Shown here: piece by piece, positions 21 to 49,709 of the stretch
Numbering within the stretch: position 1 is the first letter of the stretch
Layout of the letters: every line of letters begins with the position of its first letter
Made by a program: the position numbers and the translations under genes
Source: Luteibacter sp.
GTDB lineage: Bacteria; Pseudomonadota; Gammaproteobacteria; Xanthomonadales; Rhodanobacteraceae
Assembly (NCBI RefSeq): GCF_036499525.1
Contig: NZ_DASYDO010000069.1
Location: forward strand, 56,790 to 120,789
Length of the DNA: 64,000 bases
Direction of reading: 5' to 3'
The notes under the pieces: model-generated
The model's input: the letters and a program-made list of their open reading frames with translations, nothing else
Databases searched by the model: none
Told to the model about the DNA's origin: nothing

Positions 21-45
21 TGTCGCGCGCAGGGCGCGCTCCTAC
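21..45. repeat. GTAG-type REP arm (partner arm outside window)
   Basis: tgtcgcgcgcagggcgcgctcctac, identical to the arms at 4681-4705 and elsewhere. Confidence 0.9.
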
Positions 46-2306
46 ACCAGTTCGGATGCGGCCGTGACGATGTCGTCGACGCCCGGAAGAACGAGAAACG
101 CAGCGCCAGCCAGCGGCGTGAATGTGTCGGCACCGACCACGCGACGTAGCGGCAGGTGTCCAAGGCCGGCCTCGACGATGGCGGTGATAATGCCTTCGCC
201 CACGCCCGCGCTCTTGCGGCCCTCATCCACCACCAGGATGCGTTTCGCCGTTGCGGCCTGCTTCGCGATGAAAGCGTCGTTGAGCGGCACCAGCCAGCGC
301 AGGTCCACTACACGCACCTTCCAGCCACGCTCCGCTTCGATGCGGCGGGCGGCGCGCAGGCTCATCGGCACGCCGTTGCCGAAGGTGAAGACCACCAGGT
401 CATCGGCACCTTCGTCGTAGACGCGGCCCTCGCCCAGCTCCATCGCCTCGCCCGGCGCCGGATAGCCGAACTGCCACCGGCCGTCACCGGCCTCGTACAA
501 GTCCTTGGTCATGTACAGCGCGATCGGCTCCAGGAAGGCCGTCACGCGACCGTCCACCTTCGCCAGCGCAGCGAGCGTCCGCAGCATGGTCGCCGCATCG
601 TCGCCGCGACTTGGGCAACCCACCACGAGGCCGGGGATGTCGCGCAGCGCGGCGATCGAATTGTCGTTGTGGAAATGCCCGCCGAAGCCGCGCTGGTAAC
701 CCAGCGACGCCACGCGCATCAGCATCGGATTGCGGTACTGCCCGTTGGAGAAGAACTGCAGCGAAGCGGCCTCGCCACGAATCTGGTCGCAGGCGTTGTG
801 GAAGTACGCGAGGTACTGGATCTCGGGGATGGGCAGCATGCCCATGTTGGCGTAACCCTGGGCCAGGCCAAGGATCATCGTCTCGTCGAGCAGCGTGTTG
901 AACACGCGCGTGTTGCGGAACGCCTTGTGCAGGCCCTTGGTGACCGTATAAACACCGCCCTTCTGCGCCACGTCCTCGCCGAAGAGCAGGCTCTCCGGGT
1001 ACTTGGCCATGAGGTCGTGCAGCGCCTGGCCGATCTGGATGGCGAGATGGCGCGGCGGCTGCCTTTCCGGAAGCTTTTCCGCGCCGCCGAAGACGCGCTC
1101 GCGTTCGGTCGCGTCGCCTGCACGCGCGGCTTCGGCACGTACCGCATCGGGCGTGTACGGCGCCAGAGGCGCCATCACGTCTTCCAGCCTGGTCAGGCGC
1201 GGCCGGCTGCCAGCGTCTTCCGCAGCCTCGTAGCAACGCTTGCGGGTGGACTCGTACAGATCCATCAAGCCTTCGCGATCGTAGAGGCCCGAAGCGAGCG
1301 CGATCGCCGCGCTGCGCAGTAGCGGATCGGTGGCCTCCAGCGCGACGAGTTCCTCCACGGAACGCCATTCGATCTCGAAGTCGGTACCTGCATGGCCCAT
1401 GATGCGCGTGGTGCCGAGATGCAGGAAGGTCGGCCGGCGCGTGTTCCGGCAATGCTCCACCGCGCGCTGCACGTCCGCGTAGCCGCCGGCGAGGTCGAGG
1501 CCGTCGGCATGGAAATAGTCGAGGCCCGGACGATGGCGGAAGTTGTTCGCCACCCAGCCGCCGGGTGTCTTCACCGAGATACCGATGCCATTGTCCTCGC
1601 AGACGAAGAGCACTGGCGCCGGCAGCTTCTGGTAAGCCGTCCACGCGGCAGCATTGAAGGCCGTCTGCGCGGTGGCGTGGTTCGAGGACGCATCACCGAA
1701 CGAGCAGACGGCGATGGCATCTTCCGGTATCGGCAAGGCGTGGCCGATACGACGAGCCTGCTCGATGGCGATGGCCGTGCCCAGCGCTTTCGGAAGGTGC
1801 GAGGCGATCGTCGAGGTCTGCGGCAGCACCCACAACGGCTTGCTGCCCCACACCTTGTGTCGGCCGCCCGACGCGGGATCCTCGCTGCTCGCGGCGAACG
1901 AAAGCGCCGAATCCATGACGGGATCCATGCCCGGAAGCTTGCGGAAACGTTCCGCCATGAAGCCGCCGCTGCGGTAGTGCAGGAACGCAGGATCGGTGTG
2001 CCGCGTAAGGCGGGCGACCATCGCGTTGCCTTCGTGGCCGGATGAACCGATGGTGTAGAACACCTTGTTCTGCACCCGCAACACGCGCGCCATCAGGTCG
2101 AGGTGACGGCTGATCAGCTGCGATTCCAGCAGGTCGCGGAAGCCGCGCGCATCCAGCGCGCTGCCCGGCAGCACCGGTTCGTCCTCACGCGGCGCGCGGG
2201 CGATATCGCCCCGCCATGAGTTCACGAACTCGGCGAAGTTATGGTCGACGATCTCGGCGCGGTTGAAGCCCTTGTGGCGGGCGGCGATGGGTTGCGTGAC
2301 GGACAT
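42..2306 (-). CDS. Fused alpha/beta E1 component of a 2-oxoacid (branched-chain-type) dehydrogenase, TPP-dependent
   Basis: FYTIGSSGHEG, TPP-binding SFGDAS...EDN, beta-domain FGEDVAQKGGVY and FNTLLDE motifs; start trimmed to MSVTQ (ATG 2306); stop TAG lies in a REP GTAG. Confidence 0.88.
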   Translation of the reverse strand: MSVTQPIAARHKGFNRAEIVDHNFAEFVNSWRGDIARAPREDEPVLPGSALDARGFRDLLESQLISRHLDLMARVLRVQNKVFYTIGSSGHEGNAMVARLTRHTDPAFLHYRSGGFMAERFRKLPGMDPVMDSALSFAASSEDPASGGRHKVWGSKPLWVLPQTSTIASHLPKALGTAIAIEQARRIGHALPIPEDAIAVCSFGDASSNHATAQTAFNAAAWTAYQKLPAPVLFVCEDNGIGISVKTPGGWVANNFRHRPGLDYFHADGLDLAGGYADVQRAVEHCRNTRRPTFLHLGTTRIMGHAGTDFEIEWRSVEELVALEATDPLLRSAAIALASGLYDREGLMDLYESTRKRCYEAAEDAGSRPRLTRLEDVMAPLAPYTPDAVRAEAARAGDATERERVFGGAEKLPERQPPRHLAIQIGQALHDLMAKYPESLLFGEDVAQKGGVYTVTKGLHKAFRNTRVFNTLLDETMILGLAQGYANMGMLPIPEIQYLAYFHNACDQIRGEAASLQFFSNGQYRNPMLMRVASLGYQRGFGGHFHNDNSIAALRDIPGLVVGCPSRGDDAATMLRTLAALAKVDGRVTAFLEPIALYMTKDLYEAGDGRWQFGYPAPGEAMELGEGRVYDEGADDLVVFTFGNGVPMSLRAARRIEAERGWKVRVVDLRWLVPLNDAFIAKQAATAKRILVVDEGRKSAGVGEGIITAIVEAGLGHLPLRRVVGADTFTPLAGAAFLVLPGVDDIVTAASELV

Positions 2307-2313
2307 GCGAACC

Positions 2314-3483
2314 TCAGAACGCGTTGATGCCGGTGAGTTCGCGACCGACCACCAGCTGATGGACGGTTTCGGTGCCTTCATAGGTGATGACGGATTCGAG
2401 GTTCAGCGCATGACGGATCGCCGAATGTTCGGTGGTGATGCCGGCGCCGCCGAGGATGTCGCGGCATTCGCGCGCGATGTCCAGCGCCATGCGCACGTTG
2501 TTCCATTTCGCCAGCGACACCTGGGTGGGCTGCAGGCGACCAGCATCCTTCAGCCGGCCCAGCTGCAGCGAAAGCAGTTGCGCGGTGGTGATACGGCGGG
2601 CCATGTCGGCCAGTTTCAGCTGCACCGCCTGGTTGGCCGCGAGCGGGCGGCCGAAGAGCACGCGCTGCGCGGTGTAATCGAGCACTTCCTTGAGGCACGC
2701 CTGCGCCGCGCCGATGGGGCCCCAGGTAATGCCGTAGCGGGCCTGGTTGAGGCAACCCAGTGGGCCTTTCAGGCCCTTCACGTTCGGCAGGCGGGCGCTG
2801 TCCGGCAGGCGCACGTCGTCGAAGAACAGCGCCGAGGTGACCGAGGCGCGCAGGCTCATCTTCTTGTGCACCTCCTGCGCGGCGAAGCCCTTCGTGTCCG
2901 TCGGGACGACGAAGCCCTGGATGCCGTCGTCGGTCTGCGCCCACACGATGGCGATGTGGGCGAGGTTGCCGTTGGTGATCCACATCTTGGCACCGTTGAT
3001 CACCCAGTCGCCGCCGTCCTTGCGCGCGACCGTCTTCATGTTCGCCGGATCGGAGCCGCCGTGTGGCTCGGTGAGGCCGAAGCAGCCGATGATCTCGGCC
3101 GCGGCCATCCGCGGCAGGTATTCGCGCTTCTGCTCTTCCGAGCCGTAGGCGAAGATCGGGTACATGCACAGCGAACTCTGCACGGAGGCGAAGCTGCGCA
3201 GGCCGGAATCCCCGCGCTCCAGTTCCTGGCAGATGAGGCCGTAGCTCACGCCGTTCATGCCGGCGCAGCCGTATTCCTCAGGCAGCGTGGCCCCGAGCAG
3301 ACCCAGCGAGGCGATCTCGGAGACCAGTTCGGATGGGAAGCGGCCCTGGTCGAAGGCGTCACCGATGATCGGCAGGACCTTTTCGTCGACGAAGCGGCCA
3401 ACGGCGTCCTGCACGGCGCGCTCCTCGTCGGTGAGCAGCGAACGGACGTCGTAGAGATCGAGCGGGTCGAGACGGTGGGCCAT
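2314..3483 (-). CDS. Acyl-CoA dehydrogenase, glutaryl-CoA dehydrogenase-like
   Basis: GCFGLTEPHGGSDP, KMWITNG, YEGTETVHQL motifs; LNQARYGITWG and ALNLESVITYEG typical of the GcdH clade. Confidence 0.88.
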   Translation of the reverse strand: MAHRLDPLDLYDVRSLLTDEERAVQDAVGRFVDEKVLPIIGDAFDQGRFPSELVSEIASLGLLGATLPEEYGCAGMNGVSYGLICQELERGDSGLRSFASVQSSLCMYPIFAYGSEEQKREYLPRMAAAEIIGCFGLTEPHGGSDPANMKTVARKDGGDWVINGAKMWITNGNLAHIAIVWAQTDDGIQGFVVPTDTKGFAAQEVHKKMSLRASVTSALFFDDVRLPDSARLPNVKGLKGPLGCLNQARYGITWGPIGAAQACLKEVLDYTAQRVLFGRPLAANQAVQLKLADMARRITTAQLLSLQLGRLKDAGRLQPTQVSLAKWNNVRMALDIARECRDILGGAGITTEHSAIRHALNLESVITYEGTETVHQLVVGRELTGINAF

Positions 3484-3617
3484 GCGGGGACTCGTACTTG
3501 GTCAGCCGGAAAGCTCGTGATTGTAGCCACGGGCCGTCGTCCGGTCATGGCGGGGCGCAACAATCCATGTCACCGGGCGGTCCCATAATGGACCCTCCCC
3601 ACCGCCGGATCCCTCCC

Positions 3618-4493
3618 ATGTTCAAAGGCGTATTCCTGGGTTTCGCCTGCTACGCCGCCTATGCGTGGAGCGATGCCTTCGTGAAGTCGCTCGAAGGCAG
3701 CCTGCCGGCCTATGAGGCGGTCTTCTTCGGGGCGGTCCTGGCCATGGCGGCCCTGCCGTTCCTGAAGAAGCCCGGGGATCGGTGGAGCGAAGCGGTGGTG
3801 TCGAAACTACCCGGACTCTGGCTCCTGCGGGCCGTGGCGGGCGCTATCGGTAACGTGACCGCGGTCATGGCCTTCACCGCCCTGCCGATGGCCGAAGCCT
3901 TTTCACTGATCTTCCTGCTGCCGATCTTCGTAACCATCCTCTCTGTGGTGTTCCTGCGCGAGCATGTGGGCTGGCGGCGCTGGTCGGCCGTGATCGTCGG
4001 CTTCCTGGGCGTGCTGGTGGTGTTGCGCCCCGGCTTCCGCCATCTCGGCACCGGGCATGGGGCCGCCATCGTGTGTGGCCTTGCCGGCGCCTTGTCGATC
4101 GTCGCGCTGCGCATGGCCGGGGCCACGGAGAAGCGCATCACCCTGTACGGCGCGGGGGTTGTCGGTCCGATGGTGGCGGGCTTCATCATGATGCTGCCGC
4201 ACTTCGCCTGGCCCGACGCGCACCAGTGGCTCCTGCTGCTGGGCTACGGGCTGTTCGCCGCGGCCGGTGCCGTGCTGCTGATGCTGGCGACGCAACATGC
4301 GCCGGCCAACCGGGTCGCGCCCACGCAGTACAGCCAGATGCTATGGGCGATCCTGTTCGGCTACCTGCTGTTCCACGACCACCTGGACTGGCCGATGCTG
4401 ATCGGCATCGCGATGATCCTAGGGGCGGGGCTCTTCACCTTCGTGCGCGAGGAGAAGAAGACCCAGTGGTGGCGGTGGACCAATATCGTTTGA
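3618..4493 (+). CDS. DMT/EamA family transporter
   Basis: About 10 hydrophobic segments, FLREHVGWRRW and APTQYSQMLWA EamA-type motifs; start set at MFKG. Confidence 0.85.
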   Translation: MFKGVFLGFACYAAYAWSDAFVKSLEGSLPAYEAVFFGAVLAMAALPFLKKPGDRWSEAVVSKLPGLWLLRAVAGAIGNVTAVMAFTALPMAEAFSLIFLLPIFVTILSVVFLREHVGWRRWSAVIVGFLGVLVVLRPGFRHLGTGHGAAIVCGLAGALSIVALRMAGATEKRITLYGAGVVGPMVAGFIMMLPHFAWPDAHQWLLLLGYGLFAAAGAVLLMLATQHAPANRVAPTQYSQMLWAILFGYLLFHDHLDWPMLIGIAMILGAGLFTFVREEKKTQWWRWTNIV

Positions 4494-4494
4494 C

Positions 4495-4592
4495 CCATGG
4501 ACTTCTTGATCGTCGGCCATGAGCTTCTTGATCGCCTGGCCATGAGCTTCTTGATCGCCTGGCCATGGGCTTCTTGATCGCCTGGCCATGGG
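4495..4592. repeat. Tandem repeat, about 4 copies of a 22-23 bp unit ccatgRgcttcttgatcgcctgg
   Basis: Units read directly: ccatggacttcttgatcgtcgg, ccatgagcttcttgatcgcctgg x2, ccatgggcttcttgatcgcctgg, then ccatggg. Confidence 0.9.
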
Positions 4593-4598
4593 CCTTTC

Positions 4599-4705
4599 GT
4601 AGGAGCGCGCCCTGCGCGCGACATCTTTTCGCGCCGGTCCCCGGGCCGGCGCGCCAGCTCCGGGTCATGGCCTCAAAACATGTCGCGCGCAGGGCGCGCT
4701 CCTAC
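4599..4705. repeat. REP doublet (REPIN), GTAG type
   Basis: gtaggagcgcgccctgcgcgcgaca ... tgtcgcgcgcagggcgcgctcctac inverted arms. Confidence 0.92.
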
Positions 4706-4761
4706 AGGTTCGAGGGCCGTGGTGTGTCGGGAATCTTCGTGACGTCGCGGAGGTGCGGCGA

Positions 4762-5754
4762 TCAGGGATTCGAGACGCCGTGGGGGACGTGGCCGGTGGC
4801 CACGTGCTTGCGGGCCGATTCGACGTTGGCCGGGGAATCGTCGAAGAAGATGTCCGCGCCGAAGGCATCCAGGAACGGACCCTTGTCGCGGCCACCAAGG
4901 AACAGCGCCTCGTCGATGCGCACGCCCCAGCGGCGCAGCGTGAGGATCACGCGCTTGTGCGCCGGCGCGGAACGGGCCGTGACCAGTGCCGTGCGAATGG
5001 GCGACGTCTCGGCGGGGAACGCCGCCTGCAACCGGTGCAGCGCGGCCAGGAAGCCGCGGAATGGCCCACCCGACAAAGGCTCGGCCCAGCGTTCCGACTC
5101 GTTGCGGTGGAAGGCGTCGAGGCCCTGCTCTTTCGACACCCGCTCGCCTTCGTCGCCGAAGATCACGGCGTCGCCGTCAAAGGCGATGCGGAGTTGCTCG
5201 CTGGACCGCTGTGGTGCGGTGGACGGCAGGATCGTGGCCGCCGCCACGCCGGCGCGCAGCGCGCGGCCCACGTCCTCGGCGTTGGCGGAAAGGAAAAGAT
5301 CGGCACGGAACGGGGCGATGTAATCGGATGTGGGCGCGCCACTGGTGAACGCAGCGCGCGAGATGCCCAGTTTGTAGTGCTGGATCGCATTGAAGATGCG
5401 CAGACCCGTGTCGCCCGAGTTACGCGACAGCAGTATCACCTCCACGGCCGGCACATCGCCCGACAACGCGTTCAGCCCGAGCAGCTTCTGTACCAGTGGA
5501 AACGCCACACCCGGCTCCAGCAGATCGTTTTCATGCTCGATCTGATAGGCGCGGTAGGCGTCGAGGCCTTCGCGCTCGAACAGCCCGTGGCTGTCGCCCA
5601 TGTCGAACAGCGCGCGCGAAGAAATGGCGACCACGAGCCGGTTGTCGCTCACGGACGACGACGCGTGCGCACCCTGCGTCGCGTCGGTACCGTCTTCGGG
5701 GACGGTCCGGGCCTCACCGGAACCCTTCGCGCGGCTATGGTCGGGATCGTTCAT
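4762..5754 (-). CDS. 5'-nucleotidase (cytosolic cN-I-like family)
   Basis: LVVAISSRALFD, LLSRNS, LRIAFDGDAVIF, DIFFDD motifs. Confidence 0.88.
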   Translation of the reverse strand: MNDPDHSRAKGSGEARTVPEDGTDATQGAHASSSVSDNRLVVAISSRALFDMGDSHGLFEREGLDAYRAYQIEHENDLLEPGVAFPLVQKLLGLNALSGDVPAVEVILLSRNSGDTGLRIFNAIQHYKLGISRAAFTSGAPTSDYIAPFRADLFLSANAEDVGRALRAGVAAATILPSTAPQRSSEQLRIAFDGDAVIFGDEGERVSKEQGLDAFHRNESERWAEPLSGGPFRGFLAALHRLQAAFPAETSPIRTALVTARSAPAHKRVILTLRRWGVRIDEALFLGGRDKGPFLDAFGADIFFDDSPANVESARKHVATGHVPHGVSNP

Positions 5755-6533
5755 GGGGCGAACTGCTCGTCAAGGATGCGTTGCTGCAGGTTGTGCTCGG
5801 GGTCGAACAGCAGACGAACGGCATTACGCCGCGACTGCCTGATCTCGACGGTGCGGACGTCGCGCACTTCGTGGAAGTCCGCGGTGGCGCTGATCGGCCG
5901 CTTGTTCGGGTCTTTCGTGTCGAAGCCCACCTTCGTCGCATGCGGAAGGATGGCGCCGCGCCAGCGCCTCGGGCGGAACGGGCTGATCGGCGTGAGTGCC
6001 AGAACGTTGGCGTCCAGCGGCAGGATGGGGCCGTGCGCGGACAGGTTATAGGCGGTGGAACCGGCAGGTGTGCAGACGAGGATGCCATCGCAGACCAGTT
6101 CGTCGAGCTTTACCTCGCCGTTGAGGCGGACCTGCAGGTGAGCCGCCTGGTTGCTTTGGCGCAACAGCGCCACTTCATTGAACGCAAGCGCACGATGCTC
6201 CACGCCATCGCAGCAGATGCAGTGCATTTCCAGCGGATGCAGCACGGCCGGATGCGCCTTCTCGATACGCTCGGGAAGATGGTCCACGTCATGCTGGTTC
6301 ATGAGGAAACCGAGACGCCCGAGCTTCATGCCGTAGAACGGCACACCGAGGGTCCTGTGCGCATGCAGGGTGCGCAGCATGAAGCCGTCGCCACCCAGCG
6401 ACACGATGATGTCGGCCTCGCCAGGCTCAAAGCCGTCGTAGCGCTTGATCAGGGCGGCACGGGCGCGTTGGGCAACTTCGGTTTCGCTGGCGACGAAGGC
6501 TAGGCGCATGGGGAATGGGGCATCCGGGTCCAA
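5751..6533 (-). CDS. nadK: NAD kinase
   Basis: LGGDGFML, FNE, TPAGSTAYNLSAHGP motifs; alternative start at 6509; stop overlaps the nucleotidase start. Confidence 0.92.
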   Translation of the reverse strand: MDPDAPFPMRLAFVASETEVAQRARAALIKRYDGFEPGEADIIVSLGGDGFMLRTLHAHRTLGVPFYGMKLGRLGFLMNQHDVDHLPERIEKAHPAVLHPLEMHCICCDGVEHRALAFNEVALLRQSNQAAHLQVRLNGEVKLDELVCDGILVCTPAGSTAYNLSAHGPILPLDANVLALTPISPFRPRRWRGAILPHATKVGFDTKDPNKRPISATADFHEVRDVRTVEIRQSRRNAVRLLFDPEHNLQQRILDEQFAP

Positions 6534-6576
6534 CCGGGAGCTTAGTCCCTAAGGCGGTGCGCCGGATAGGCCAGTT

Positions 6577-6683
6577 GTAGGAGCGCGCCCTGCGCGCGAC
6601 AGCTTTTCGCCTCAGTCCTGAAGCTAGCGCGCCAACTCCAGGGCACGGCCTCAAAAGCTGTCGCGCGCAGGGCGCGCTCCTAC
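6577..6683. repeat. REP doublet (REPIN), GTAG type
   Basis: Same inverted arms as 4599-4705 with a related spacer. Confidence 0.92.
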
Positions 6684-6720
6684 GGGACCGGGCAGGCGGA
6701 TCTTCCGCCTGCCGTATTCC

Positions 6721-9700
6721 TCAGACCGGAATCTGCGCCAACTGGGCCAGGCGGCGGACGGCGACCGAAGCGATCGGGTAGTCCGCGTTCTGGGTGAGGA
6801 TTTCCGCAAGCATGGCGCGGGTGTACTTCAGCGTGGCGTCATCCCGATCCAGCCAGGCCTTGACCGGGCTGATGTCGGTGCGGTCGCCCGCGACGCTGAG
6901 CACTTGCAGGGCAAGGGCGCGGTGCTGGGCGTTGAGCTCGTCCAGCAACGAACCCCGGGCCTGCGCGTGCCATGCGCCTTCCACCGGGAGGGCTTCGATC
7001 TGGCCGCGGAGCCAGTCCAGATCGAGCGCCTCGCCCAGTTCATAGAACACCGTGGCGACGGTGGCGATGCCCTTGCCGCTCTGCTTCGACACTTCAACCA
7101 TGTCGAGCGCAGAGCGCAACACCGGAATGCGGGCGAGGCGGACGGACAGCGTGTTCGGCGCGCCCAGTCCTTCCCACTTTTCCTGGCTGGCGGCAAAGTC
7201 GCCGCGGCCCGTGTCGGTGAGCGCATCAGGCAGCGCCTCGCGCAGCGCGGTGACTTCGCTGGCGTAACGGTCCACGTTGGCTGCGATATCCAGCGAACCG
7301 CCCGGACGGTTGAGCAGCCAGCGGGTAAGGTGGCGCAGCAGCGACCAGATCTGCAGGATCGCGTCGATCTGCGTGTCCTCGGCCACCGTGCCGTCCAGCG
7401 CCTCGATCTCGGCCCATAGGTCGCGGGCATCCAGGATCTCGCGCGCTGCCGTGTAGGCCTTGGCGATGGACGCCGGACCGTGGCCTGTATCCTCCTGCAT
7501 GCGCATCATGAAGGTGGCGCCCATGCGGTTGATCGTCGAGTTGGTCACCGCCGTGGCGATGATCTCGCGCTTCAGGCGATGGCGTTGCATGTGCCCGGCG
7601 TACTTCTCGTGCAGCGGCACGGGGAAGTAGCGCACCAGTTCGCGCGACAGGTACGGATCTTCCGGCACGTCCGATTCCAGCAGCTGCTGGAACAGCCGGA
7701 TCTTGTCGTAGGAGAGCAGCACCGACAGTTCCGGACGGGTCATGCCCTGGCCGCGCTGCTTCCGCTCGGACAGTTCGGCGGCCGTCGGCAGCGACTCCAC
7801 CTGGCGATCGAGCAGGCCCTCGGCTTCCAGCGTACCGATGAAGTGGGCCATGGAGCCCAGGCGGCGCACCGACTGGTGCTCCATCATCGTGATGGCCTGG
7901 TTCTGCCGGTAGTTGTCCCACAGCACGAGGCGCGCCACTTCGTCGGTCATCTCCGCCAGCTGGCGGTTGCGGCCTTCGAAGCTGAGCTCGCCGCGCTGCA
8001 CCGCGTCGTTGAGCAGGATCTTGATGTTCACCTCGTGGTCGGAGGTGTCCACGCCCGCGGAATTGTCGATGAAGTCGGTGTTCAGCAGCACGCCGGCCTG
8101 GCCGGCCTCGATACGGCCCTTCTGGGTCATGCCGAGGTTGCCACCCTCGCCCACCACCTTGCAGCGCAACTCGTTGCCATTTACGCGCAGCGCGTTGTTG
8201 GCGCGATCGCCGGCATCGGCATGCGTCTCGCTGGTGGCCTTCACGTAAGTGCCGATACCGCCGTTCCACAGCAGGTCCACCGGGGCCTTCAGGATCGCCG
8301 AAAGCAGATCGCTCGGCGCCACGTGGGCGACGTCGGCGCGGATAGCGAGCGCGGCGCGCACTTCAGGCGACACCGGAATCGACTTGGCGCTGCGCGGATA
8401 CACGCCACCACCGGCCGAGATCAGCGACTTGTCGTAGTCGTCCCACGAGGAGCGCGGCAGCGCGAACATGCGCTGGCGTTCCGCGAACGACGTCGCCGCA
8501 TCCGGGTTCGGATCGAGGAACACATGGCGATGGTCGAAGGCGGCCAGCAGGCGGATGTGCCCGGAGAGCAGCATGCCGTTGCCGAACACATCGCCGGACA
8601 TGTCGCCCACGCCCACGACGGTGAAGTCCTGCGTCTGTGAATCGCGGCCCATCGCGCGGAAGTGGCGCTTCACCGACTCCCAGGCACCCTTGGCGGTGAT
8701 GCCCATGCCCTTGTGGTCGTAACCGTAGGAGCCGCCGGAGGCGAAGGCATCGTCGAGCCAGAAGCCGTGCTCGGTGGAGATGGCATTGGCGATATCGGAG
8801 AACGTGGCCGTGCCCTTGTCCGCCGCGACCACGAGGTACGGATCGTCCTCGTCATGGCGAACCACGTCGTGCGGCGCCACCACCTTGCCTTCCACGAGGT
8901 TGTCGGTGATGTCGAGCAGGCCATTGATGAACATGCGGTAGCAGGCGATGCCTTCGGCCAGCTGTGCGTCGCGGTCGCCGCCCACCGGCGGGCGCTTCAC
9001 GAAGAAGCCGCCCTTCGAACCGACCGGGACGATGACGGTGTTCTTCACCATCTGCGCCTTCACGAGACCCAGCACTTCCGTACGGAAATCCTCGCGTCGA
9101 TCAGACCAGCGCAGGCCGCCACGGGCCACGGAACCGAAGCGAAGGTGGATGCCCTCGACGCGGGGCGCGCAGACGAATATCTCACGGAACGGCACCGGCT
9201 TGGCCAGGTCCGGCACGCGGTGCGAATCGAACTTGAAGCTGAGGTACGGGCGGAACGCGCCGTCCCAGGCCTGGAAGAAGTTCGTGCGCAAGGTGGCGTA
9301 CACCAGCGCGATGAAGCTGCGCAGGATGCGGTCTTCATCGAGGCTGGACACGTTGTCCAGGAGCGCGTTGATCGCCTCCTCCACCGCGGTGACCTGTTCG
9401 GAGCGCGGAAGGCCGAGCGCGGACACGAGGTTGCCGATGAGGCCCGGATGCGCGGCGAGTACCTCCGCGTCCATGAGCGCGTGCATCTCGTGCGAAAGCA
9501 TGCTCTCCGCGCGCTCGCGCTCGGCTCCGTCGAGGCTCTCGCGGCGCGGGTCGAAGCGTGCGTTGAACAATTCGATGATGAGGCCGGCGATGGCGGGATA
9601 GCGATTCAGCGCGTCTTCCATGTACGCCTGCGAGAACGCCACGCCGGTCTGCAGCAGGTACTTGCAGTAGCTGCGCAGCACCGCGACCTGGCGCCAGCCG

Positions 9701-22824: not shown

Positions 22825-22931
22825 GTAGGAGCGCGCCCTGCGCGCGACATGTTTTGAGGCCGAAACCGGGAACTGGCGCGCCAGCTTGCCGACCGGGGCG
22901 AAAACATGTCGCGCGCAGAGCGCGCTCCTAC
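22825..22931. repeat. REP doublet (REPIN), GTAG type
   Basis: gtaggagcgcgccctgcgcgcgaca ... tgtcgcgcgcagagcgcgctcctac. Confidence 0.92.
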
Positions 22932-38016: not shown

Positions 38017-38119
38017 GTAGGAGCGGACCTGTCCGCGACAGCTGTTGAGGACGTGCCTTGGAGAGCACGCGTGAGTCAGGACCGAGGCGAAGAGCTGTCG
38101 CGGACAAGTCCGCTCCTAC
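38017..38119. repeat. REP doublet, variant family (GTAGGAGCGGAC..GTCCGCGA)
   Basis: gtaggagcggacctgtccgcgaca ... tgtcgcggacaagtccgctcctac. Confidence 0.88.
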
Positions 38120-39723
38120 ACCGCGCGCAGTTCGCGCAGGCGGAACCCAAGGGCGAAGAGCGTGGCGACGTAGGCGCCGCCGCCCGCACCGACCAGCACC
38201 GCCAGGCGCCATACCCGTTCCCACTTCTCGACGCCGCTCCAGTCTGGCCAGATGTACAGGCCGGCCAGGAGGACCACCACCATCACCGCACACGACACCC
38301 CGAGGCGGACCAGATGACGCCCCCACCCTGGCTGGCGCGTGTATACGCCGGCCTTGCCGAGCCAGCGCCAGAGCAGGATCAGGTTGAGATAGCTGGCCAC
38401 CGCGCTCGCCATGCCCAGGGCCATGTGCAGGCCCGGGATCGTGGCGATCGCCTCCATCCACGAACCCGCTTTCTGTTCGGGACTTGCCCACAGGAAGAAC
38501 AGGAGGGCAAGGAAGGCCATGTTGAAAACCATGTTCGCCACCAGCGACGCCACGCCGGCCCGCACGGGGGTCTTCGTGTCCTTGCGCGAGTAGAAGGCCG
38601 GCAGCACCACTTTGACCAGGGCGAAGGCCGGCAGACCGAAGCTCAGGGCTGAAATGGACAGCGACGCCATCTTCGTGTCGAAAGCGGTAAACCGGCCATG
38701 CTGGAAGATCGTCGCCACGAGGGGCACGGACAGGATCATCAACGCGAACATCGCAGGCACGGCGATCAGCAGCGTCGTGCGCAAGCCCCAGTCGAGCGCG
38801 CGCGAGAAGCCTTCCTTGTCCGTCGCCACATGGTGGCGCGACAGCGAAGGCAGGATCACCGTGCCGAGGGCCACGCCGAACACACCCAGCGGCAGCTCGA
38901 GGAAGCGATCGGCCTGCGACAGCCAGCTCTGCGAGCCGGCGATCAGCAGCGAGGCGATCACCGTGTCCAGCAACAGGTTGATCTGGGCCACCGAGGAGCC
39001 GAACAGGGTTGGCACCATCAGCGTCATGATCCGGCGCACGTCCGGCGAACTCCAGCCCCACCGGGGCAGCGCCAGCAGGTCCAGTCCGCGCAACGCCGGC
39101 AGCTGGAAGGCCAGCTGCAGCATGCCTGCGAGCAGAATCGCCCAGCCCATCGCCATGATCGGCGTCTGCAGCCGCGGCGCCAGCCACAGCGCGCCGGCGA
39201 TCATGCACAGGTTGAGGATCACCGGCGTGAGCGCTGGCAGGCCGAAGCGATGGAAGCTGTTGAGCGCCCCGCCGCATAACGCGGTAAGCGAAACGAACAG
39301 CAGGAACGGAAAGGTCAGGCGCAACAGGTTGACCGTGAGTCCGAACTTCTCGGGTGTCTCGATGGCGCCCGGGGAGAACAGCGCGGTGACCTGTGGCGCG
39401 AAGATCACGCCGAGCGCGACCACCACCAGCAGCACCCCACCCAGCGTGCCCGCGGTGAGCGACATGAGCCGCTTCAGGTCCTCGTGGGGCCGGGTTTCTT
39501 TCACTTCGGTGAAGACGGGCACGAAGGCCGTCGAGAAGGAACCTTCGGCGAACAGCCGGCGCATGAAGTTGGGGATGCGGAAGGCAACCCAGAACGCGTC
39601 GGTGGCCGCATTGGCGCCGAACGAAGCATTGATCGCCATGTCCCGCACCAGCCCGAGCACGCGCGACACCATGGTCATGCCGCTGAAGCTGAGCATGCCG
39701 CGAAGGAGGCTGGGGGTTTTCAT
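38116..39723 (-). CDS. murJ: Lipid II flippase MurJ
   Basis: TMVSRVLGLVRD, AFRIPNFMRRLFAEG, ADRFLELPLG, PAFYSRKDTKTPV; start set at MKTPS. Confidence 0.95.
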   Translation of the reverse strand: MKTPSLLRGMLSFSGMTMVSRVLGLVRDMAINASFGANAATDAFWVAFRIPNFMRRLFAEGSFSTAFVPVFTEVKETRPHEDLKRLMSLTAGTLGGVLLVVVALGVIFAPQVTALFSPGAIETPEKFGLTVNLLRLTFPFLLFVSLTALCGGALNSFHRFGLPALTPVILNLCMIAGALWLAPRLQTPIMAMGWAILLAGMLQLAFQLPALRGLDLLALPRWGWSSPDVRRIMTLMVPTLFGSSVAQINLLLDTVIASLLIAGSQSWLSQADRFLELPLGVFGVALGTVILPSLSRHHVATDKEGFSRALDWGLRTTLLIAVPAMFALMILSVPLVATIFQHGRFTAFDTKMASLSISALSFGLPAFALVKVVLPAFYSRKDTKTPVRAGVASLVANMVFNMAFLALLFFLWASPEQKAGSWMEAIATIPGLHMALGMASAVASYLNLILLWRWLGKAGVYTRQPGWGRHLVRLGVSCAVMVVVLLAGLYIWPDWSGVEKWERVWRLAVLVGAGGGAYVATLFALGFRLRELRAV

Positions 39724-39883
39724 CCGGTCGAAGGCTACCTTGGGGCGATCGGAGCGGCCCTGGGGGCCGCCACAAACCCCTAGTTTGACAGCGCGGCCCG
39801 GGCGGAGGACAGTCCGTCCGCTGGAAATCTGCAGGCGATGTCGCCCTACCCGCCCCGGACCCGCTCGCGCGGGGCCTAAGCTA

Positions 39884-39912
39884 TTGACGCGGCCCGCCTT
39901 TGGTTCCAAAAT
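39884..39912 (+). promoter_or_regulatory. Candidate sigma70 promoter of rpsT
   Basis: TTGACG-17 bp-CAAAAT. Confidence 0.6.
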
Positions 39913-39953
39913 GGGCGTCTTTTTTAAAACCAACCGAACTCTGGAGCTTTACC

Positions 39954-40277: not shown

Positions 40278-41515
<1,238 letters not shown>

Positions 41516-41792: not shown

Positions 41793-41812
41793 GACTTATA
41801 TCCTCCGGCGAC

Positions 41813-42127
41813 TCAGGCGTTGATGCCCGTGATCTCGATTTCGGTGTAGTGCTGACGGTGTCCCTGCGTACGCTTGTAGTGCTTGCGACGACGGAACTTG
41901 ACGATGCGGATCTTATCGGCGCGGCCGTGGGCGCGAACCTTCGCGCTGACGGTGGCACCGGCGACCAGGGGGGCGCCGACGGTGATCGACTCACCTTCGC
42001 CGACGAGGAGGACCTGGTCGAACTGGATGGTGGCATCGACTTCGGCGTTGAGCAGCTCGACGCGCAGGACTTCGCCTGCCATCACGCGATACTGCTTGCC
42101 ACCGGTCTTGATGACTGCGTAGCTCAT
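41813..42127 (-). CDS. rplU: 50S ribosomal protein L21
   Basis: [13 protein letters not shown]...[13 protein letters not shown]. Confidence 0.98.
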
Positions 42128-42189
42128 GGTTAATTCCTGTTGCTGTTTATGTAGTTCTTTTTTGGTGTTGCGGGTGTTGCGAATCGCGA

Positions 42190-42219
42190 ATTATAGCGGG
42201 CCGCAAAAGGCAAGGTCAA
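42190..42219 (-). promoter_or_regulatory. Sigma70 promoter of rplU-rpmA
   Basis: Minus strand TTGACC-18 bp-TATAAT. Confidence 0.7.
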
Positions 42220-42384
42220 TCAGGCGGTTATAGGCGGCCACAGGCCCTGCGCCCGGCCCCGCGAACCCCACTCGCCCTTAACTATCAATCACTTGACCCA
42301 CCCAACCTTCAGGTAGAGGCACGCTCGCGCCGCCGCAGGTTCGGACGGCGAGGCGCAGAGCTTCACGTTCGGGCGGCGAGGCGC

Positions 42385-42527
42385 AGAGCCTTCGGTGTCC
42401 ACCCTCGCTGCTCAGACAGGTCCTCCGCGTTCGATAAGGAAGGCCGCTACCGCGGCCCTTGTATCTGTATGGCCTACGGCCGCTCTCTTGTGCGGAACTC
42501 GCCTCGAGGGTGGACACCGAAGGCTCT
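42385..42527. repeat. 143-bp structured element, copy A, with perfect 23-bp terminal inverted repeats
   Basis: agagccttcggtgtccaccctcg / cgagggtggacaccgaaggctct flanking a 97-bp core. Confidence 0.9.
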
Positions 42528-42741
42528 CCCGATCCCTGAGGCTGACTGCTCGGAGAGCCGCCACCGTGCTAGCCGGGTTGTGGAGCCCCACCCTGCGGAT
42601 TGATACCCGCGTCGGGTACGACCCGTCCGGGCGGAGCCTTGTGCGGCACACGGCGCACCCGCTTAGGTCGAGCAAAAGCCCGTGCCGGCGACAACATTGC
42701 ACGCCAACGGCTCGCCCACCATGCAACCGTATCGCCCGGAA

Positions 42742-42882
42742 GAGAGCTTGGGGCCCACCCTCGAGGCGAGTTCCGCACAAGAGAGCGGCCGTAGGCCATA
42801 TAAGTACATGGGCCGCGGTAGCGGCCTTCCTTATCGAACGCGGAGGACCTGTCTGAGCAGCGAGGGTGGGCCCCAAGCTCTC
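42742..42882. repeat. 141-bp structured element, copy B (inverted relative to A), with perfect 22-bp terminal inverted repeats
   Basis: gagagcttggggcccaccctcg / cgagggtgggccccaagctctc; core is the reverse complement of the A core with 4 mismatches. Confidence 0.9.
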
Positions 42883-43019
42883 CCCGCGAAACGCTCACGT
42901 GTAAAGCGCGATGGCGAACGCCGAGCCTCCGCCCCGAAGCCGAAGGCGAGCCTGATCGCGCGAGACGACACGACCGCCCGCCTGAAGACCGTCCTCGTCC
43001 CCGGTAATGCGTGAAGAAT

Positions 43020-43520
43020 CTATTTCTTCGGGGCGGGCGCGGGCTTGGCCGCGCCGGTAGCGGGGCACTGGCCCTGCGGGTTCAGGGTGCCCTGGCTCTG
43101 CAGCTGGGAGATCATCTGCTTGCCGCGCTCCTGGCCCCACTGCCTGCCGATCTGCATGCCCTCGGCCATGGTGGCCGGCATCTGCGTGATCACCTTCTGG
43201 CCCAGGGGCGAGCGGTAGAACTTGAGCAGGCCGTCGATGTCCTCGGACGTGAAGTGCTTCTGGTAGACCGGAACCATGCGGCCGATCAGCTGGTTGGTGG
43301 CGTTGGCGTCCACGAAACCCTGCCAATAGCTGGCCGGTACGCAGGGCAGCGCGCTTTGCATCACACCCGCCATCTGGCTGTTCATCTGGCTGAGCATGCG
43401 CCCCATGCCGACGGCGTCCATCAGCTGGCGTACCTGCTGCTCGGACGGCACCGCCGCCAGGGCCTGCCCCGCACAACCCGCCAGCACGAGGCCGGCGGCA
43501 ATCCCTGTCCACTTACGCAT
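43020..43520 (-). CDS. DUF2059-family exported protein
   Basis: Signal peptide; VYQKHFTSEDIDGLLKFYRSPLGQK motif; start set at MRKWT. Confidence 0.8.
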   Translation of the reverse strand: MRKWTGIAAGLVLAGCAGQALAAVPSEQQVRQLMDAVGMGRMLSQMNSQMAGVMQSALPCVPASYWQGFVDANATNQLIGRMVPVYQKHFTSEDIDGLLKFYRSPLGQKVITQMPATMAEGMQIGRQWGQERGKQMISQLQSQGTLNPQGQCPATGAAKPAPAPKK

Positions 43521-43721
43521 GCGTGTCTTCCTCTTCGGATGATTGGCTGTGATCCCCCCAGGGGGCCGCGTCATGGTAGCCCCGCCGGGGCCTTGTGGCT
43601 AACCGGCGCGGGACGTCTGCCTGTCCCTCATAACAAATGTGATGAATCGTCAAAAGTCCATGCGGGATGAAGGCCGAAGACCCTTGGTATAGTCGTCGAC
43701 TTCCCCCATTAACGTCGGCAC

Positions 43722-46633
<2,912 letters not shown>

Positions 46634-46637
<4 letters not shown>

Positions 46638-47074
46638 GCACCGAAGCCTCGCTTGACCCGTCGCCCATCCCGCTATTCATCACGCCGATGGACGTGCGCT
46701 GGCAGGACCTCGACGCGTACAACCACGTGAACAACGCCAACTACCTCGTCTACCTGCAGGAAGCGCGGTTGCAGTGGCTGAAGGACGTTCCGGGCGAGTG
46801 GTACAGCCCCGAGGCGGCGCCGGTCATGGCGCACAGCGAGTTGAACTACAGGCTGCCCATCGAGTGGCCGGCGGACATCCAGATCGAACTGTTCGTCAAC
46901 CGTATCGGCAACAGTTCGATGACCATCGGTCATCGCATCCTCGACAGCAACGATCCGACGCGCGTCCACTGCGACGGCAGCATCACCATGGTGTGGATCG
47001 ACACCCGCAGCGGCCGCCCGGTGCCGCTGCCGCAGGCGATCCGCGACGCGGCTGCGGAAGCGGAAAGGGCTTGA
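46634..47074 (+). CDS. Acyl-CoA thioesterase (4HBT/YbgC hot-dog family)
   Basis: [25 protein letters not shown] motif. Confidence 0.88.
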
Positions 47075-47099
47075 GGCCTTCGAACGCGCCCGGGGCTTT

Positions 47100-47207
47100 G
47101 TAGGAGCGCGCCCTGCGCGCGACATGTTTTCGCCCCGGTCCCGGAGTTCACGCGCCAGCTCCGAGGTCACGGCCTCAGAACATGTCGCGCGCAGGGCGCG
47201 CTCCTGC
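47100..47207. repeat. REP doublet (REPIN)
   Basis: gtaggagcgcgccctgcgcgcgaca ... tgtcgcgcgcagggcgcgctcctgc. Confidence 0.9.
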
Positions 47208-47298
47208 AAAAGGCGACGCAGGCCGCACGCTTTCGCAAAAGATCGCGAACGTTCAGTCCTCCCCGGTATGATCCGCCAGGGTCACCACGGAGAGCATC

Positions 47299-48756
47299 AT
47301 GCTGCAACGTTCCCTCGTCCTTGCGATCGCCTGTGCCGTCGCCCTTCCCGCTTTCGCCGCCGATGAGCGCACCGCGCTCACGCTTTATCGCGCCGACGGC
47401 GACCAGCTGTTCTCCACCGGTGGCGACGCCGTCTCTGGCGATGGCTACGCGGTCGTCCACGAACGCCGCGCCTTCGACCTGAAGGGCGGCACGCAGGACC
47501 TGGCGATCGACGGCCTGCCCGCCGCGCTCGACAGCGAGGCCCTTTCCCTGCGCTTTCCCGGCAAGGAAACCCGCGTGGTCTCACAGCGCCTGCTGCTCGG
47601 CCAGGGATTCGACGGCGCCGTGGCCGGGCTCGTGGGCCGTAACGTCAGCGTGATCGGCGAGAGCGGCCAGCCCATCGCCAGCGGCACGCTGGTCCGCGGT
47701 GGCGACGCCCTCGTCGTGCGGGAAGCGAACGGCCAGGCGACCCTCGTGCGCCAGTACGCCGCGCTGCGCGCCGCGGACAGCACCGATTTCGCCCGCGGAT
47801 CGACCCTGCAGGTACGTGTCACCGGCAGCGGCGCGGGCCATGCGAACGCCCAGCTGGACTATCCCACCTCCGGCCTCGGCTGGCGCGGTGCCTATGTCGC
47901 CACCCTCCAGCCCGGCAATGCCTGCCGCATGAGCTTCGATGCCGCCGCGAGCATCGCCAACCGCAGTGGCCGCGACTGGGAGGACGTAACGCTGAAGCTC
48001 GTCGCCGGGGAGGCGCGCCGGGCCAAGATGCCGCCGCAGCCAAAGATGTTCGATCGCGGCATGGTGGCGATGGCCAAGGCCGCGCCGCCGATGCCGGCCC
48101 AGGCCACGCTTGGCGATCTGCGCACCTATACCCTCCCCGCCGCCGTGGACCTGCCGGATGGCAGCGTCACGCAGACGCCTCTGTACGACCGCCGCACCCT
48201 CGACTGCGAACGCGAGGCAGTGTACGACTCGCAGACCGGGGGCTGGTTTCCGCCGCGTCCGAATCTGGAACGGCAGACGATTCCTCCCGCCAATGGCGTG
48301 CCCATCATTTCCAACCTGCGCTTCAAGGCTTTCGACAGCCTGCCCGCTGGCTACGTGCGCGTGCTGGCCACCGATCGTGACGGCAATGCCGAACTGCTTG
48401 GCGAGGGTCGCATCGACGACACGCCAAAGGGTCAGGAGAGCACCGTTTCGCTCGGCAACGCGTTCGATCTCACGGCCACGCGCGAGCAGACGGCCTTCAC
48501 CGCGGATGCGAATGCGCACCGTATCGAGGAAGGCTTCCGCATCATGCTTTCCAATGCGGGCGACACGGCCCGCACGATCACCGTGCACGAGCACCCGAAC
48601 CGCTGGAGGGCGTGGAGGGTGACGTCGTCTTCCACCAGGCCGACCAAGGTGTCGCCCGAACTGCTGGAGTTCAAGGTACAGGTGCCGGCCAATGGAAATG
48701 TCACGCTGGACTACGCGGTGCAATACACCTGGGTGGATGCGGATATCCCGCGATAA
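47299..48756 (+). CDS. DUF4139-domain exported protein
   Basis: Signal peptide; YAVVHERR, LDYPTSGLGW, TLKLVAGE, YTLPAAVDL pattern. Confidence 0.75.
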   Translation: MLQRSLVLAIACAVALPAFAADERTALTLYRADGDQLFSTGGDAVSGDGYAVVHERRAFDLKGGTQDLAIDGLPAALDSEALSLRFPGKETRVVSQRLLLGQGFDGAVAGLVGRNVSVIGESGQPIASGTLVRGGDALVVREANGQATLVRQYAALRAADSTDFARGSTLQVRVTGSGAGHANAQLDYPTSGLGWRGAYVATLQPGNACRMSFDAAASIANRSGRDWEDVTLKLVAGEARRAKMPPQPKMFDRGMVAMAKAAPPMPAQATLGDLRTYTLPAAVDLPDGSVTQTPLYDRRTLDCEREAVYDSQTGGWFPPRPNLERQTIPPANGVPIISNLRFKAFDSLPAGYVRVLATDRDGNAELLGEGRIDDTPKGQESTVSLGNAFDLTATREQTAFTADANAHRIEEGFRIMLSNAGDTARTITVHEHPNRWRAWRVTSSSTRPTKVSPELLEFKVQVPANGNVTLDYAVQYTWVDADIPR

Positions 48757-48841
48757 CTGCGGCAAGCCCATCGCCGGCAGGGTCGGCTCCCACCGAGCTT
48801 TATCCGACCACATCAGACTCATCATTCCGGGGACAAGCACC

Positions 48842-49597
48842 ATGCTCGATATCCTTCCGCACGACGGCGGCATCCACGAAATCCGCCTGGCGCGCGCGCC
48901 AGTGAACGCGTTCGACATCGGCCTGCTCCAGGCGTTGCGCGAAGCTATCGTCGAGGCACCGTCCAACGGCGCCCGGGGCATCGTGATTTCGGGGGCGCAG
49001 GGCATGTTCTCCGCTGGCGTGGACGTGCCCGCCCTTATCCAGCGCAACCGCGCCGGCGTGAAGGAATTCTGGAACGAATTCTTCGCCCTTTGCGGTGCCA
49101 TCGCGACCTCGAGCGTACCGACGGTCGCCGCCATCACCGGGCACAGCCCGGCCGGCGGCGCGGTGGTGTCGCTGTTCTGCGACTACCGGATCATGGCGCA
49201 CGGCGTTTACAAGATCGGCCTCAATGAGGTTCAGGTCGGTCTTTCCGTTCCCGAACCGATCCAGTTCGCCATGCGCCGCATCGTCGGCGCGTACCGCGCC
49301 GAGCGCCTGCTGGTGGCGGGCGCCATGGTCGACGCGGAACAGGCGCATGCGATCGGACTGGTCGACGAACTGTCCACGGTGGAGCAGGTGGTGACGCGCT
49401 CGGTGCTATGGCTCGAAGATCTGCTGAAGCTGCCACCGAAAGCCATGCTGCGCACCCGCGCCATCGCCCGCGCCGACCTCGTCGCCGTCTGGGGCGACAC
49501 GACCAACCTGCTCGACCCGGGGTTCATCGACGACTTCTTCGCCGAGGAAACCCAGACGGTGCTGAAGGCCCTGGTGGCCCGGCTGAAATCGAAATAG
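48842..49597 (+). CDS. Enoyl-CoA hydratase/isomerase
   Basis: FSAGVDV, AAITGHSPAGG, IGLNEVQVGL, AIGLVDE; start set at MLDIL. Confidence 0.88.
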   Translation: MLDILPHDGGIHEIRLARAPVNAFDIGLLQALREAIVEAPSNGARGIVISGAQGMFSAGVDVPALIQRNRAGVKEFWNEFFALCGAIATSSVPTVAAITGHSPAGGAVVSLFCDYRIMAHGVYKIGLNEVQVGLSVPEPIQFAMRRIVGAYRAERLLVAGAMVDAEQAHAIGLVDELSTVEQVVTRSVLWLEDLLKLPPKAMLRTRAIARADLVAVWGDTTNLLDPGFIDDFFAEETQTVLKALVARLKSK

Positions 49598-49601
49598 AAC
49601 C

Positions 49602-49709
49602 GTAGGAGCGCGCCCTGCGCGCGACAGCTTTTGAGGCCCTGTCTTGGAGCGGGCGCGCCAGCACCGGGAACCGGCGCGAAAGTCTGTCGCGCGCAGGGCG
49701 CGCTCCTAC
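49602..49709. repeat. REP doublet (REPIN)
   Basis: Canonical inverted arms. Confidence 0.92.

Follow-up and report, generated by a model that had tools for sequence, protein, structure and literature searches.

The closest described case concerns the GTAG REPs surveyed by Di Nocera, De Gregorio and Rocco (2013, BMC Genomics 14:522; PMC3733652): the passages of that paper on which we draw state that the GTAG termini of REPs often give a TAG stop, and that REPs lie between convergent or unidirectional genes within 20 bp of their 3' ends. The phenomenon described here is the same, in the same superfamily, although those passages devote to it a single qualitative sentence, without counts, a chance test or an orthologue comparison. 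The supply of stops by REPs has been known since 2013, and the present case is a quantified example; what is added is the scale (some 20% of the units are involved, and 26% of all TAG stops), the position of the TAG at the ancestral stop, the occurrence of both fused and spaced states at orthologous REPINs, and the recurrence of fused sites across species with different families.

The traits of REPtrons have been set out by Nunvar et al. (2010; PMC2817692), Ton-Hoang et al. (2012; PMC3333891), Corneloup et al. (2021; PMC8266576) and Bertels and Rainey, and the elements in the Luteibacter sp. genome share with these REPIN–RAYT systems the GTAG head, GA dinucleotide and GC-rich palindrome of the Xanthomonas/Pseudomonas type, the arrangement as inverted doublets, and the presence of one rayt gene with REPs of its own on either side. 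A CT-like dinucleotide 5' of GTAG would be compatible with the published CT cleavage site. Those papers are concerned with recognition, cleavage and population dynamics, and not with the supply of stop codons; here, in contrast, even the rayt gene takes its stop from a flanking REP.

The repeat unit, GAGCGCGCC(C)TGCGCGCGAC, is a GC-rich palindrome of high copy number and mostly extragenic location. A Hamming scan with a 25-mer, allowing up to 5 mismatches, returned 589 REP units genome-wide against about 4 expected false matches, and 97–100% of them carry the GTAG head at the 5' foot of the palindrome. The genome holds 257 inverted doublets (REPINs) of 95–108 bp, with GTAG facing outward at both outer ends; the two that were folded form single long hairpins (−69.6 kcal/mol, z-score −5.9, and −78.2 kcal/mol, z-score −8.0), and reading frames enter the REP at only some 20 units. 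Across the units, the base at position −1 of GTAG is T in 48–57% and C in 25–35%, and that at −2 is C in about 40%, giving a pyrimidine-rich, CT-like dinucleotide with which CT is compatible but in which it is not fixed. No fixed target beyond the pyrimidine at −1 was found in the flanks of the REPINs, and a model in which one of the two flanks is always the bearer of a T or CT target was rejected, as the flanks vary independently. The sequence-only reading of this DNA had tied these GTAG-type REPs to a RAYT transposase, and the genome bears this out: its lone Y1_Tnp gene has the same REPs on both sides.

C73:21467-21727, RAYT gene (PF01797, 26.9 bits against a cut-off of 23, the one match in the genome), whose own stop is the TAG of a flanking REP
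L161 1268-1374, REPIN upstream of the RAYT gene
L161 1884-2010, REPIN downstream of the RAYT gene

The elements are GTAG-headed REP doublets, that is, REPINs, of a RAYT-associated family.

Within the window, the whole 64,000-nucleotide stretch that was analysed, four genes had been noted to end NTG-TAG-GAG, and all four indeed do so, with a TAG made up of the final three bases of a REP arm's GTAG head. The genes and their REPINs are as follows (sequences are those of the minus strand).

1..45, minus strand, right arm of the REPIN at the E1 gene, with GTAG at 42-45; this REPIN begins 52 bases upstream of the window
42..2381, minus strand, E1 gene, a fused alpha/beta 2-oxoacid dehydrogenase of 779 aa, stop at 42-44, ending ..CTG GTG TAG GAGCGCGCC
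38017..38119, REPIN separating the murJ stop from the ribF start, with the variant stem CGGAC..GTCCG
38116..39933, minus strand, murJ, stop at 38116-38118, ending ..GCG GTG TAG GAGCGGAC; the actual start probably lies downstream of 39933
40278..40385, REPIN separating the rpsT terminator from the end of obgE, RNA fold −69.6 kcal/mol
40382..41449, minus strand, obgE, 355 aa, stop at 40382-40384, ending ..GAT CTG TAG GAGGGCGCC
49602..49709, REPIN between two convergent genes; its right end is the Nudix-TenI stop, and its left end lies 4 nt past the TAG of the gene 48692-49597
49706..50632, minus strand, Nudix-TenI fusion gene, 308 aa, stop at 49706-49708, ending ..TTC CTG TAG GAGCGCGCC

Their identities are given by Pfam matches: E1_dh, Transket_pyr and Transketolase_C for E1, MurJ for murJ, GTP1_OBG and MMR_HSR1 for obgE, and NUDIX and TMP-TENI for the Nudix-TenI gene. 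The earlier count of four among eight non-internal elements also holds, as the window contains eight extragenic doublets and one intragenic one; the remaining elements are listed next, the first four of them belonging to the same family.

4599..4705, REPIN that supplies no stop
6577..6683, REPIN that supplies no stop
22825..22931, REPIN; a TGA closes the upstream gene, and only the two bases CT part it from the REP (TGA-CT-GTAG, distance −6)
47100..47207, REPIN whose right head has decayed to GCAG
57156..57251, REPIN inside a long ORF, the 'internal' element left out of the eight

A 109-aa ORF (46774-47103) ends on the TAG of the REPIN at 47100..47207, but the scorer preferred a gene read in a different frame (46634-47074). 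Immediately beyond the window there is a fifth case, in which the left arm of the first doublet provides the stop of a convergent GGDEF gene. In the fold prediction for the murJ REPIN as RNA (−78.2 kcal/mol), the UAG is paired in the stem base; we infer that in such genes the UAG would be paired at the foot of a hairpin of some −70 to −78 kcal/mol, which a terminating ribosome would have to open.

The fusion of REP and stop is shown to be genome-wide and far above chance. With gene ends called by a purpose-built codon-usage ORF scorer rather than a standard gene finder, a coding frame ends exactly on the TAG of the unit at 118–126 units. Coding sequence that extends up to GTAG shares the frame of the TAG in 126 cases and falls in the other two frames in 6 and 14 (binomial 5e-40). 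The distribution of stop-to-GTAG distances is equally lopsided, and bears out the excess of overlap for which a genome-wide count had been proposed: 118 units lie at distance 0, against 196 over distances −3 to −30, or 7.0 per nucleotide (Poisson P ~1e-98). About 20% of REP units are involved in stop supply; at least one stop is given by 98 of the 257 REPINs, nine of which provide the stops of both convergent genes, and REPs account for 120 of the 452 predicted TAG stops (26.5%). In the terminal GTAG, the TAG is the first in-frame stop of real flanking genes. The fused genes have no evident functional theme, with essential genes, transporters and the RAYT gene among them.

Comparison with orthologues indicates what the REP has replaced. 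A look-up of the exact S20 protein, aimed at closer strains, yielded genomes of no more than 87–90% identity and thus no empty sites within the species; the genome under study is denoted G000, and the related genomes named below are G003, G006, G007 and G009. Set against REP-free orthologues from the five closest genomes, 19 of the 27 genes compared have a modal length difference of 0; in the other eight it is 1–8 residues. In all four named genes, which are counted among the 19, the REP TAG occupies the codon position of a TGA, TAA or TAG in REP-free orthologues, which fits the earlier suggestion that TAG stops are reconstituted without disruption of the genes. The murJ stop position matches that of 15 of 15 relatives, all of which end ..LRA(H/Q/R), 14 with TGA and one with TAG; for obgE, the match is with 10 of 15, the other five being one residue longer, and for the Nudix-TenI gene with two of three. 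The E1 orthologues of G006 and G007 have TGA at the same codon position, whereas those of G003 and G009 are also REP-fused but 5 aa longer. The competing suggestion, that arrival of the REP had trimmed the C-termini, is not supported, as only the last one or two residues are altered: H/Q to V in murJ (CAC to GTG), GE to DL in obgE (GGC GAA to GAT CTG, giving ..RMRDL for the ..RMRGE of relatives) and A to V in E1. These comparisons show that the REP TAG usually takes the place of the ancestral stop, codon for codon, and does not truncate the protein.

The same REPIN may be found in either state. At locus C10:10785 (g22), the distal junction of the REPIN is the same in G000, G003 and G009, and the protein has equal length in all three; G000 and G003 are fused, and G009 has a TAA followed by a 28-nt spacer. 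Three further gene ends are fused in G000: the GGDEF gene has TAA and 25–27 nt before the REPIN in G003 and G009, gene g1 reads CGG TAG GTAGGAG in G003, and obgE has its REPIN 35–50 nt downstream in G003 and at locus L163. Moreover, G007 carries a different GTAG REP family (GTAGGAGCCGCTATAGCGGC) with a spike of its own (25 fused units, against 8 at −3 to −10). Of its 23 fused gene ends, nine are fused in G000 and seven have a REP nearby; for its 292 REP-free gene ends, the corresponding numbers are three and nine (Fisher 2e-9). The same gene ends are thereby shown to tend to carry a REP, often fused, in a related species with a different REP family. About 30% of the ends that are fused in G007 are unfused in G000, so that fusion may not be strictly permanent, a point against the mechanism favoured below.

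We favour the reading in which long-lived REPIN sites take over the stop once a short spacer is lost, with a probability of about 0.5, because orthologous REPINs are fused in one species and lie 25–30 nt downstream of the stop in another; on this point, the evidence leans towards loss of the spacer rather than towards insertion that itself targets stops. REPINs would hold short spacers 3' of genes over long evolutionary periods, and the few to ~30 nucleotides between the old stop and GTAG would later be lost together with the old stop, the only tolerated products being those that keep the protein length. Once the REP TAG was the only stop, purifying selection on the gene would lock that end of the REP in place, so that fused ends would accumulate. 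Keeping the exact protein length demands very specific deletions, which speaks against spacer loss, and no general microhomology that would make them precise was shown, since most ancestral stops are TGA (40/73). The murJ REPIN, too, tells against it: in all 15 relatives, the site carries neither a REP nor an unfused intermediate. By nearest-copy divergence, fused REPINs are not more diverged than unfused ones (P = 0.89), although this is a weak clock, all REPINs being ~90% identical to their nearest copy. In G007, GTGG-headed REPs, which cannot fuse, do not pile up at stops, the closest being at −6, and a simple gradual ratchet towards the stop is therefore not visible in that genome.

Alternatively, the REPIN might integrate beside, or 3' of, an existing G-TAG or similar tetranucleotide, the gene keeping its own stop; we regard this as possible, if rather doubtful. 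Elements of the IS200/IS605 family integrate 3' of a fixed target tetranucleotide, as in the TTAC model of IS608. Common to them and to the REPINs is a tetranucleotide 5' of a subterminal hairpin that is central to the enzyme's choice of site, but the REPIN flanks, unlike the fixed target of IS200/IS605, have nothing constant beyond the pyrimidine described above; to our knowledge, REPIN integration has never been reconstituted. Direct targeting would account for the mostly unchanged protein lengths, for the fused murJ REPIN with no intermediate state, and for gene ends that are fused to one REP family in G000 and to another in G007. It would also suit the fate of the old stop: with the flanks joined, a remnant (a third base plus old stop directly after the REPIN) is present in just 4 of 107 cases, the chance level, and this candidate signature was rejected, as was the CTGA at E1, which is the conserved end of the GGDEF gene seen on the opposite strand. 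Similarly, 11 of 73 REP-free orthologues of fused genes end in G-TAG, compared with 4.3% of genes genome-wide (P = 3e-4, the orthologues not being independent), and GTAG guides the choice of cleavage site in RAYT biochemistry (PMC8266576). However, the published cleavage occurs at CT dinucleotides and not after GTAG (PMC8266576), and the REP-free orthologues mostly end in TGA. Simple insertion after an existing GTAG would not predict the frequent rewriting of the final one or two codons, nor does it sit well with orthologous REPINs that share a distal junction and yet, depending on the species, are either fused or spaced. A preference of orientation at fused ends was likewise rejected, the TTTTCGC arm and the TTTTGAGG arm being used without bias (odds ratio 1.0), which further counts against targeting.

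A related and speculative proposal, to which we give somewhat less weight than to one chance in three, is that G-TAG stops and REP heads are interchangeable landing or retention sites, whose occupancy outlives any one REP family, a new family overwriting the old with the GTAG/stop kept. Were this so, REP turnover would drive the choice of stop codon, with about a quarter of TAG stops owed to REPs and ~4% of genes tied to a selfish repeat.

Adaptive regulation, in which a stem-buried stop tunes termination, stalling and tmRNA tagging, or 3' mRNA stability in some 120 genes, is improbable as the cause. It is consistent with the predicted pairing of the UAG and with a report that SMAG REPs change the stability of upstream transcripts (PMC3184786). 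REPs in E. coli no more than 15 nt from a stop are reported to stall ribosomes, by Liang, Rudd and Deutscher (2015) as cited in PMC12306157; that citation and the present case have in common a stable REP hairpin within reach of the terminating ribosome, but the E. coli REP lies 1–15 nt past the stop, whereas here the stop is inside the REP stem. Furthermore, REPs are depleted at spacers of 0–7 nt, yet frequent at 0. Nevertheless, the fused genes lack an evident functional theme, and regulation of this kind would account for persistence and not for origin.

Random insertion followed by purifying selection alone, the survivors being those with an in-frame TAG at the gene end, is very improbable. 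Selection can account for the frame bias of 126 : 6 : 14, as the other two frames read 10–30 residues into the REP, and also for the rarity of short truncations. It cannot, however, yield 118 units at one position when neutral downstream positions hold ~7 per nucleotide, and under it the old stop should have left remnants beyond the REPIN, which are found at chance level. Finally, although gene ends were taken from a purpose-built scorer, an ORF-calling artefact or a coincidence limited to the window can be set aside, given the full-length Pfam matches of the four genes and their orthologues ending at the same residue, the internal control provided by the other two reading frames, and the replication of the effect in G007.

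About 120 genes (~4%) of a soil bacterium, essential ones included, thus stop on a selfish or domesticated repeat, and since REPs supply the stops of ~4% of genes, stop-codon usage in REP-rich, high-GC genomes is partly a by-product of repeat dynamics. Fused REP ends cannot be lost without damage to the gene, which may help to explain the persistence of REPIN populations. Annotation should treat genes ending within a 'repeat' as real and leave their ends unclipped. If the buried stop alters termination or mRNA decay, these REPs would constitute a genome-wide layer of expression control.

In four genes of the window, each identified by Pfam, a GC-rich palindrome follows a terminal NTG TAG GAG, the stop being the TAG of the GTAG head of a REP:

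E1 gene, minus strand, stop at 42-44
murJ, minus strand, stop at 38116-38118
obgE, minus strand, stop at 40382-40384
Nudix-TenI gene, minus strand, stop at 49706-49708

The REP unit in the genome under study (G000) is GTAGGAGCGCGCC(C)TGCGCGCGACA, and the units are paired in inverse orientation, at 95-108 bp per pair, with a GTAG at each outer end; the pairs are therefore REPINs. The window holds eight extragenic pairs and one intragenic pair (57156-57251, within a long ORF), in agreement with the count made by the sequence-only reading. The first REPIN (C69:56737-56834, reaching from 52 bases upstream of the window to position 45) occupies the entire gap between the convergent E1 and GGDEF genes and provides both stops: its far end is the stop of the GGDEF gene, and two genes are thus terminated by a single element. 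An ORF ending on GTAG is not always a gene: a 109-residue ORF at 46774-47103 has the REP TAG at 47100 as its stop, and the codon-usage scorer preferred another frame there, ending at 47074.

Across the 3.84 Mb assembly (65% G+C), in which the window is C69:56790-120789, there are 589 REP units with at most five mismatches to the 25-mer, versus ~4 in a reversed-sequence control; they comprise 257 pairs and 75 unpaired units. Their head-GA-palindrome layout is common to the type given for Xanthomonas and Pseudomonas by Nunvar et al. (PMC2817692). A T or a C precedes GTAG in 80% of units, with the two ends varying independently, which is compatible with the CT reported as the cleavage site of the REP-associated transposase, RAYT (PMC8266576). 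The single IS200-like Y1 transposase gene of the assembly, on contig C73, has REPINs of this family on either side, and this is a REPtron arrangement. The gene itself (locus L161, 1435-1887, outside the window) ends TGG CTG TAG GAGCGCGCC, its stop being the TAG of the flanking REP; that downstream REP carries an insert, TTTATGCCCGCG, and ~20 further genomic copies of this variant are present.

For the genome-wide comparison, gene ends were taken from a codon-usage scorer trained on G000, the end of the nearest well-scoring same-strand ORF being assigned to each unit. Where coding sequence reaches the GTAG, it does so in the TAG frame in 126 cases, versus 6 and 14 for the other two frames (binomial 5e-40). 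The stop coincides with the REP TAG (distance 0, here termed fused) in 118 units, whereas distances of -3 to -30, at which the gene's own stop precedes the TAG by that many nucleotides, together account for 196 units, or 7.0 per nucleotide, with a largest count of 26 at -14; only seven ORFs read into the REP. The Poisson probability of the spike at 0 is ~1e-98. Given the spike and the frame bias, the overlap between REPs and stops suspected from the four genes exceeds chance throughout the genome. At least one stop is supplied by 98 of the 257 REPINs, and both stops of two convergent genes by nine; REPs provide 120 of 452 predicted TAG stops (26.5%) and terminate ~4% of predicted genes.

To compare protein lengths, 28 fused genes were represented by their last 70 residues, joined into a single query that served to locate orthologues in the five genomes of the genus closest to G000; the gene ends of these were set against those of G000 for 27 genes. 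The REP TAG occupies the codon position of the stop of REP-free orthologues (TGA 40, TAG 17, TAA 16) in 19 of these, so the proteins were not trimmed at their C-termini by REP arrival, which had been one of two earlier suggestions; the other eight are 1-8 residues longer or shorter, with C-termini that vary among the relatives too. Among the four window genes, murJ ends LRA(H/Q/R) in 15 of 15 relatives (14 TGA, one TAG) and LRAV TAG in G000; obgE ends RMRGE in ten relatives, RMRGED in five and RMRDL TAG in G000; E1 ends LA TGA in G006 and G007 and LV TAG in G000; and the stop position of the Nudix-TenI gene is equal in two of three relatives. The old stop has been replaced in place, the final one or two codons often being rewritten. 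Some REP-free orthologues (e.g. L062 of G006, TTG TAG gtctcctat) have G-TAG followed by a short CTCCTAC-like stretch, possibly a trace of a REPIN whose interior has been lost.

Two relatives, G003 and G009, possess the same REP family, and orthologous gene ends were compared ('spaced' denotes a gene with its own stop and a gap before the REP):

C10:10785: one distal junction shared by three species; fused in G000 and G003, but with TAA and a 28-nt gap ahead of GTAG in G009; proteins of equal length in all three
GGDEF gene: fused in G000; in G003 and G009, a gap of 25-27 nt
another gene: CGG TAG GTAGGAG in G003, fused in G000
obgE: REPIN 35-50 nt downstream in G003, fused in G000
E1: fused in G003 and G009, where the protein is five residues longer than in G000

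Orthologous REPINs are therefore spaced in one species and fused in another, so that changes between the two states occur after insertion. In loci L164 and L170 of relatives, the rpsT-obgE spacer, a REPIN site in G000, contains three to four tandem terminator-like units of ~45 bp (AAAAGCAGGC..GCCGGCTTTTTTTG).

A 2 Mb portion of G007 was also scanned, and its gene ends were compared with the entire G000 genome. Its REP family differs (GTAGGAGCCGCTATAGCGGC) and is accompanied by units with a GTGG head. The stop-codon spike of G000 is seen again among the GTAG-headed units, with 25 of 231 fused versus 8 at -3 to -10 and 63 at -11 to -20; the 90 GTGG-headed units, which are unable to supply a stop, show no pile-up against stops in the 2 Mb, the closest lying at -6. 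In both genomes, and for both heads, REPs are rare 0-7 nt past a stop and commonest 8-12 nt past it (distance -11 to -15, peak -14); the ribosome footprint is one possible limit behind this scarcity. The G007 ends correspond to those of G000 as follows:

fused to a REP in G007 (n = 23): 9 fused in G000, 7 with a REP within 60 nt
REP 3-30 nt downstream in G007 (n = 144): 22 fused in G000, 52 with a REP within 60 nt
REP-free in G007 (n = 292): 3 fused in G000, 9 with a REP within 60 nt

These counts (Fisher's test, fused versus REP-free, 2e-9) show that the occupation of individual 3' spacers by REPs is retained, or arises repeatedly, in different species. To a degree this holds for the fused state too, despite the corresponding fused ends in G000 bearing the other REP family. 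Spacers that hold a REP in G007 hold one of a different family in G000 in 51-70% of cases, versus 4% for REP-free spacers, a sign either of in-place replacement or of hot spots that are hit repeatedly.

The reading that fits best, to which we give a probability of about one half, is that REPIN sites in 3' spacers would be long-lived, the spacer and old stop being lost secondarily; the products would be filtered by purifying selection on protein length, and the REP TAG would be locked in once it became the sole stop. The main rival, in which REPINs integrate directly at G-TAG or a similar site, seems rather unlikely: TGA forms the majority of ancestral stops, final codons are rewritten, and REPINs sharing a junction differ in state, even if G-TAG is in excess in REP-free orthologues (11 of 73 versus 4.3%; P = 3e-4, the orthologues not being independent), two REP families occur at the same gene ends, murJ has no visible intermediate state, and old-stop remnants are absent beyond chance. 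The last point disposes of plain insertion between bases two and three of the last codon, as the 'third base plus old stop' predicted directly after the REPIN was found in 4 of 107 cases, the chance level. Fused ends show no bias in arm orientation, and fused and unfused REPINs do not differ in nearest-copy identity. An adaptive role for a stop buried in a predicted hairpin of -70 to -78 kcal/mol is a possible candidate. Random insertion and selection alone cannot produce the spike at distance 0.

A statement in Di Nocera et al. (2013; PMC3733652) holds that GTAG termini of REPs often provide a TAG stop. Our gene ends come from a codon-usage scorer, and what we add to that statement calls for standard annotation and more genomes. 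G000 thus offers a clear and quantified example of what was already in print, to which we make the modest additions of an effect size, the in-place replacement of stops, changes of state at orthologous REPINs and recurrence across REP families.
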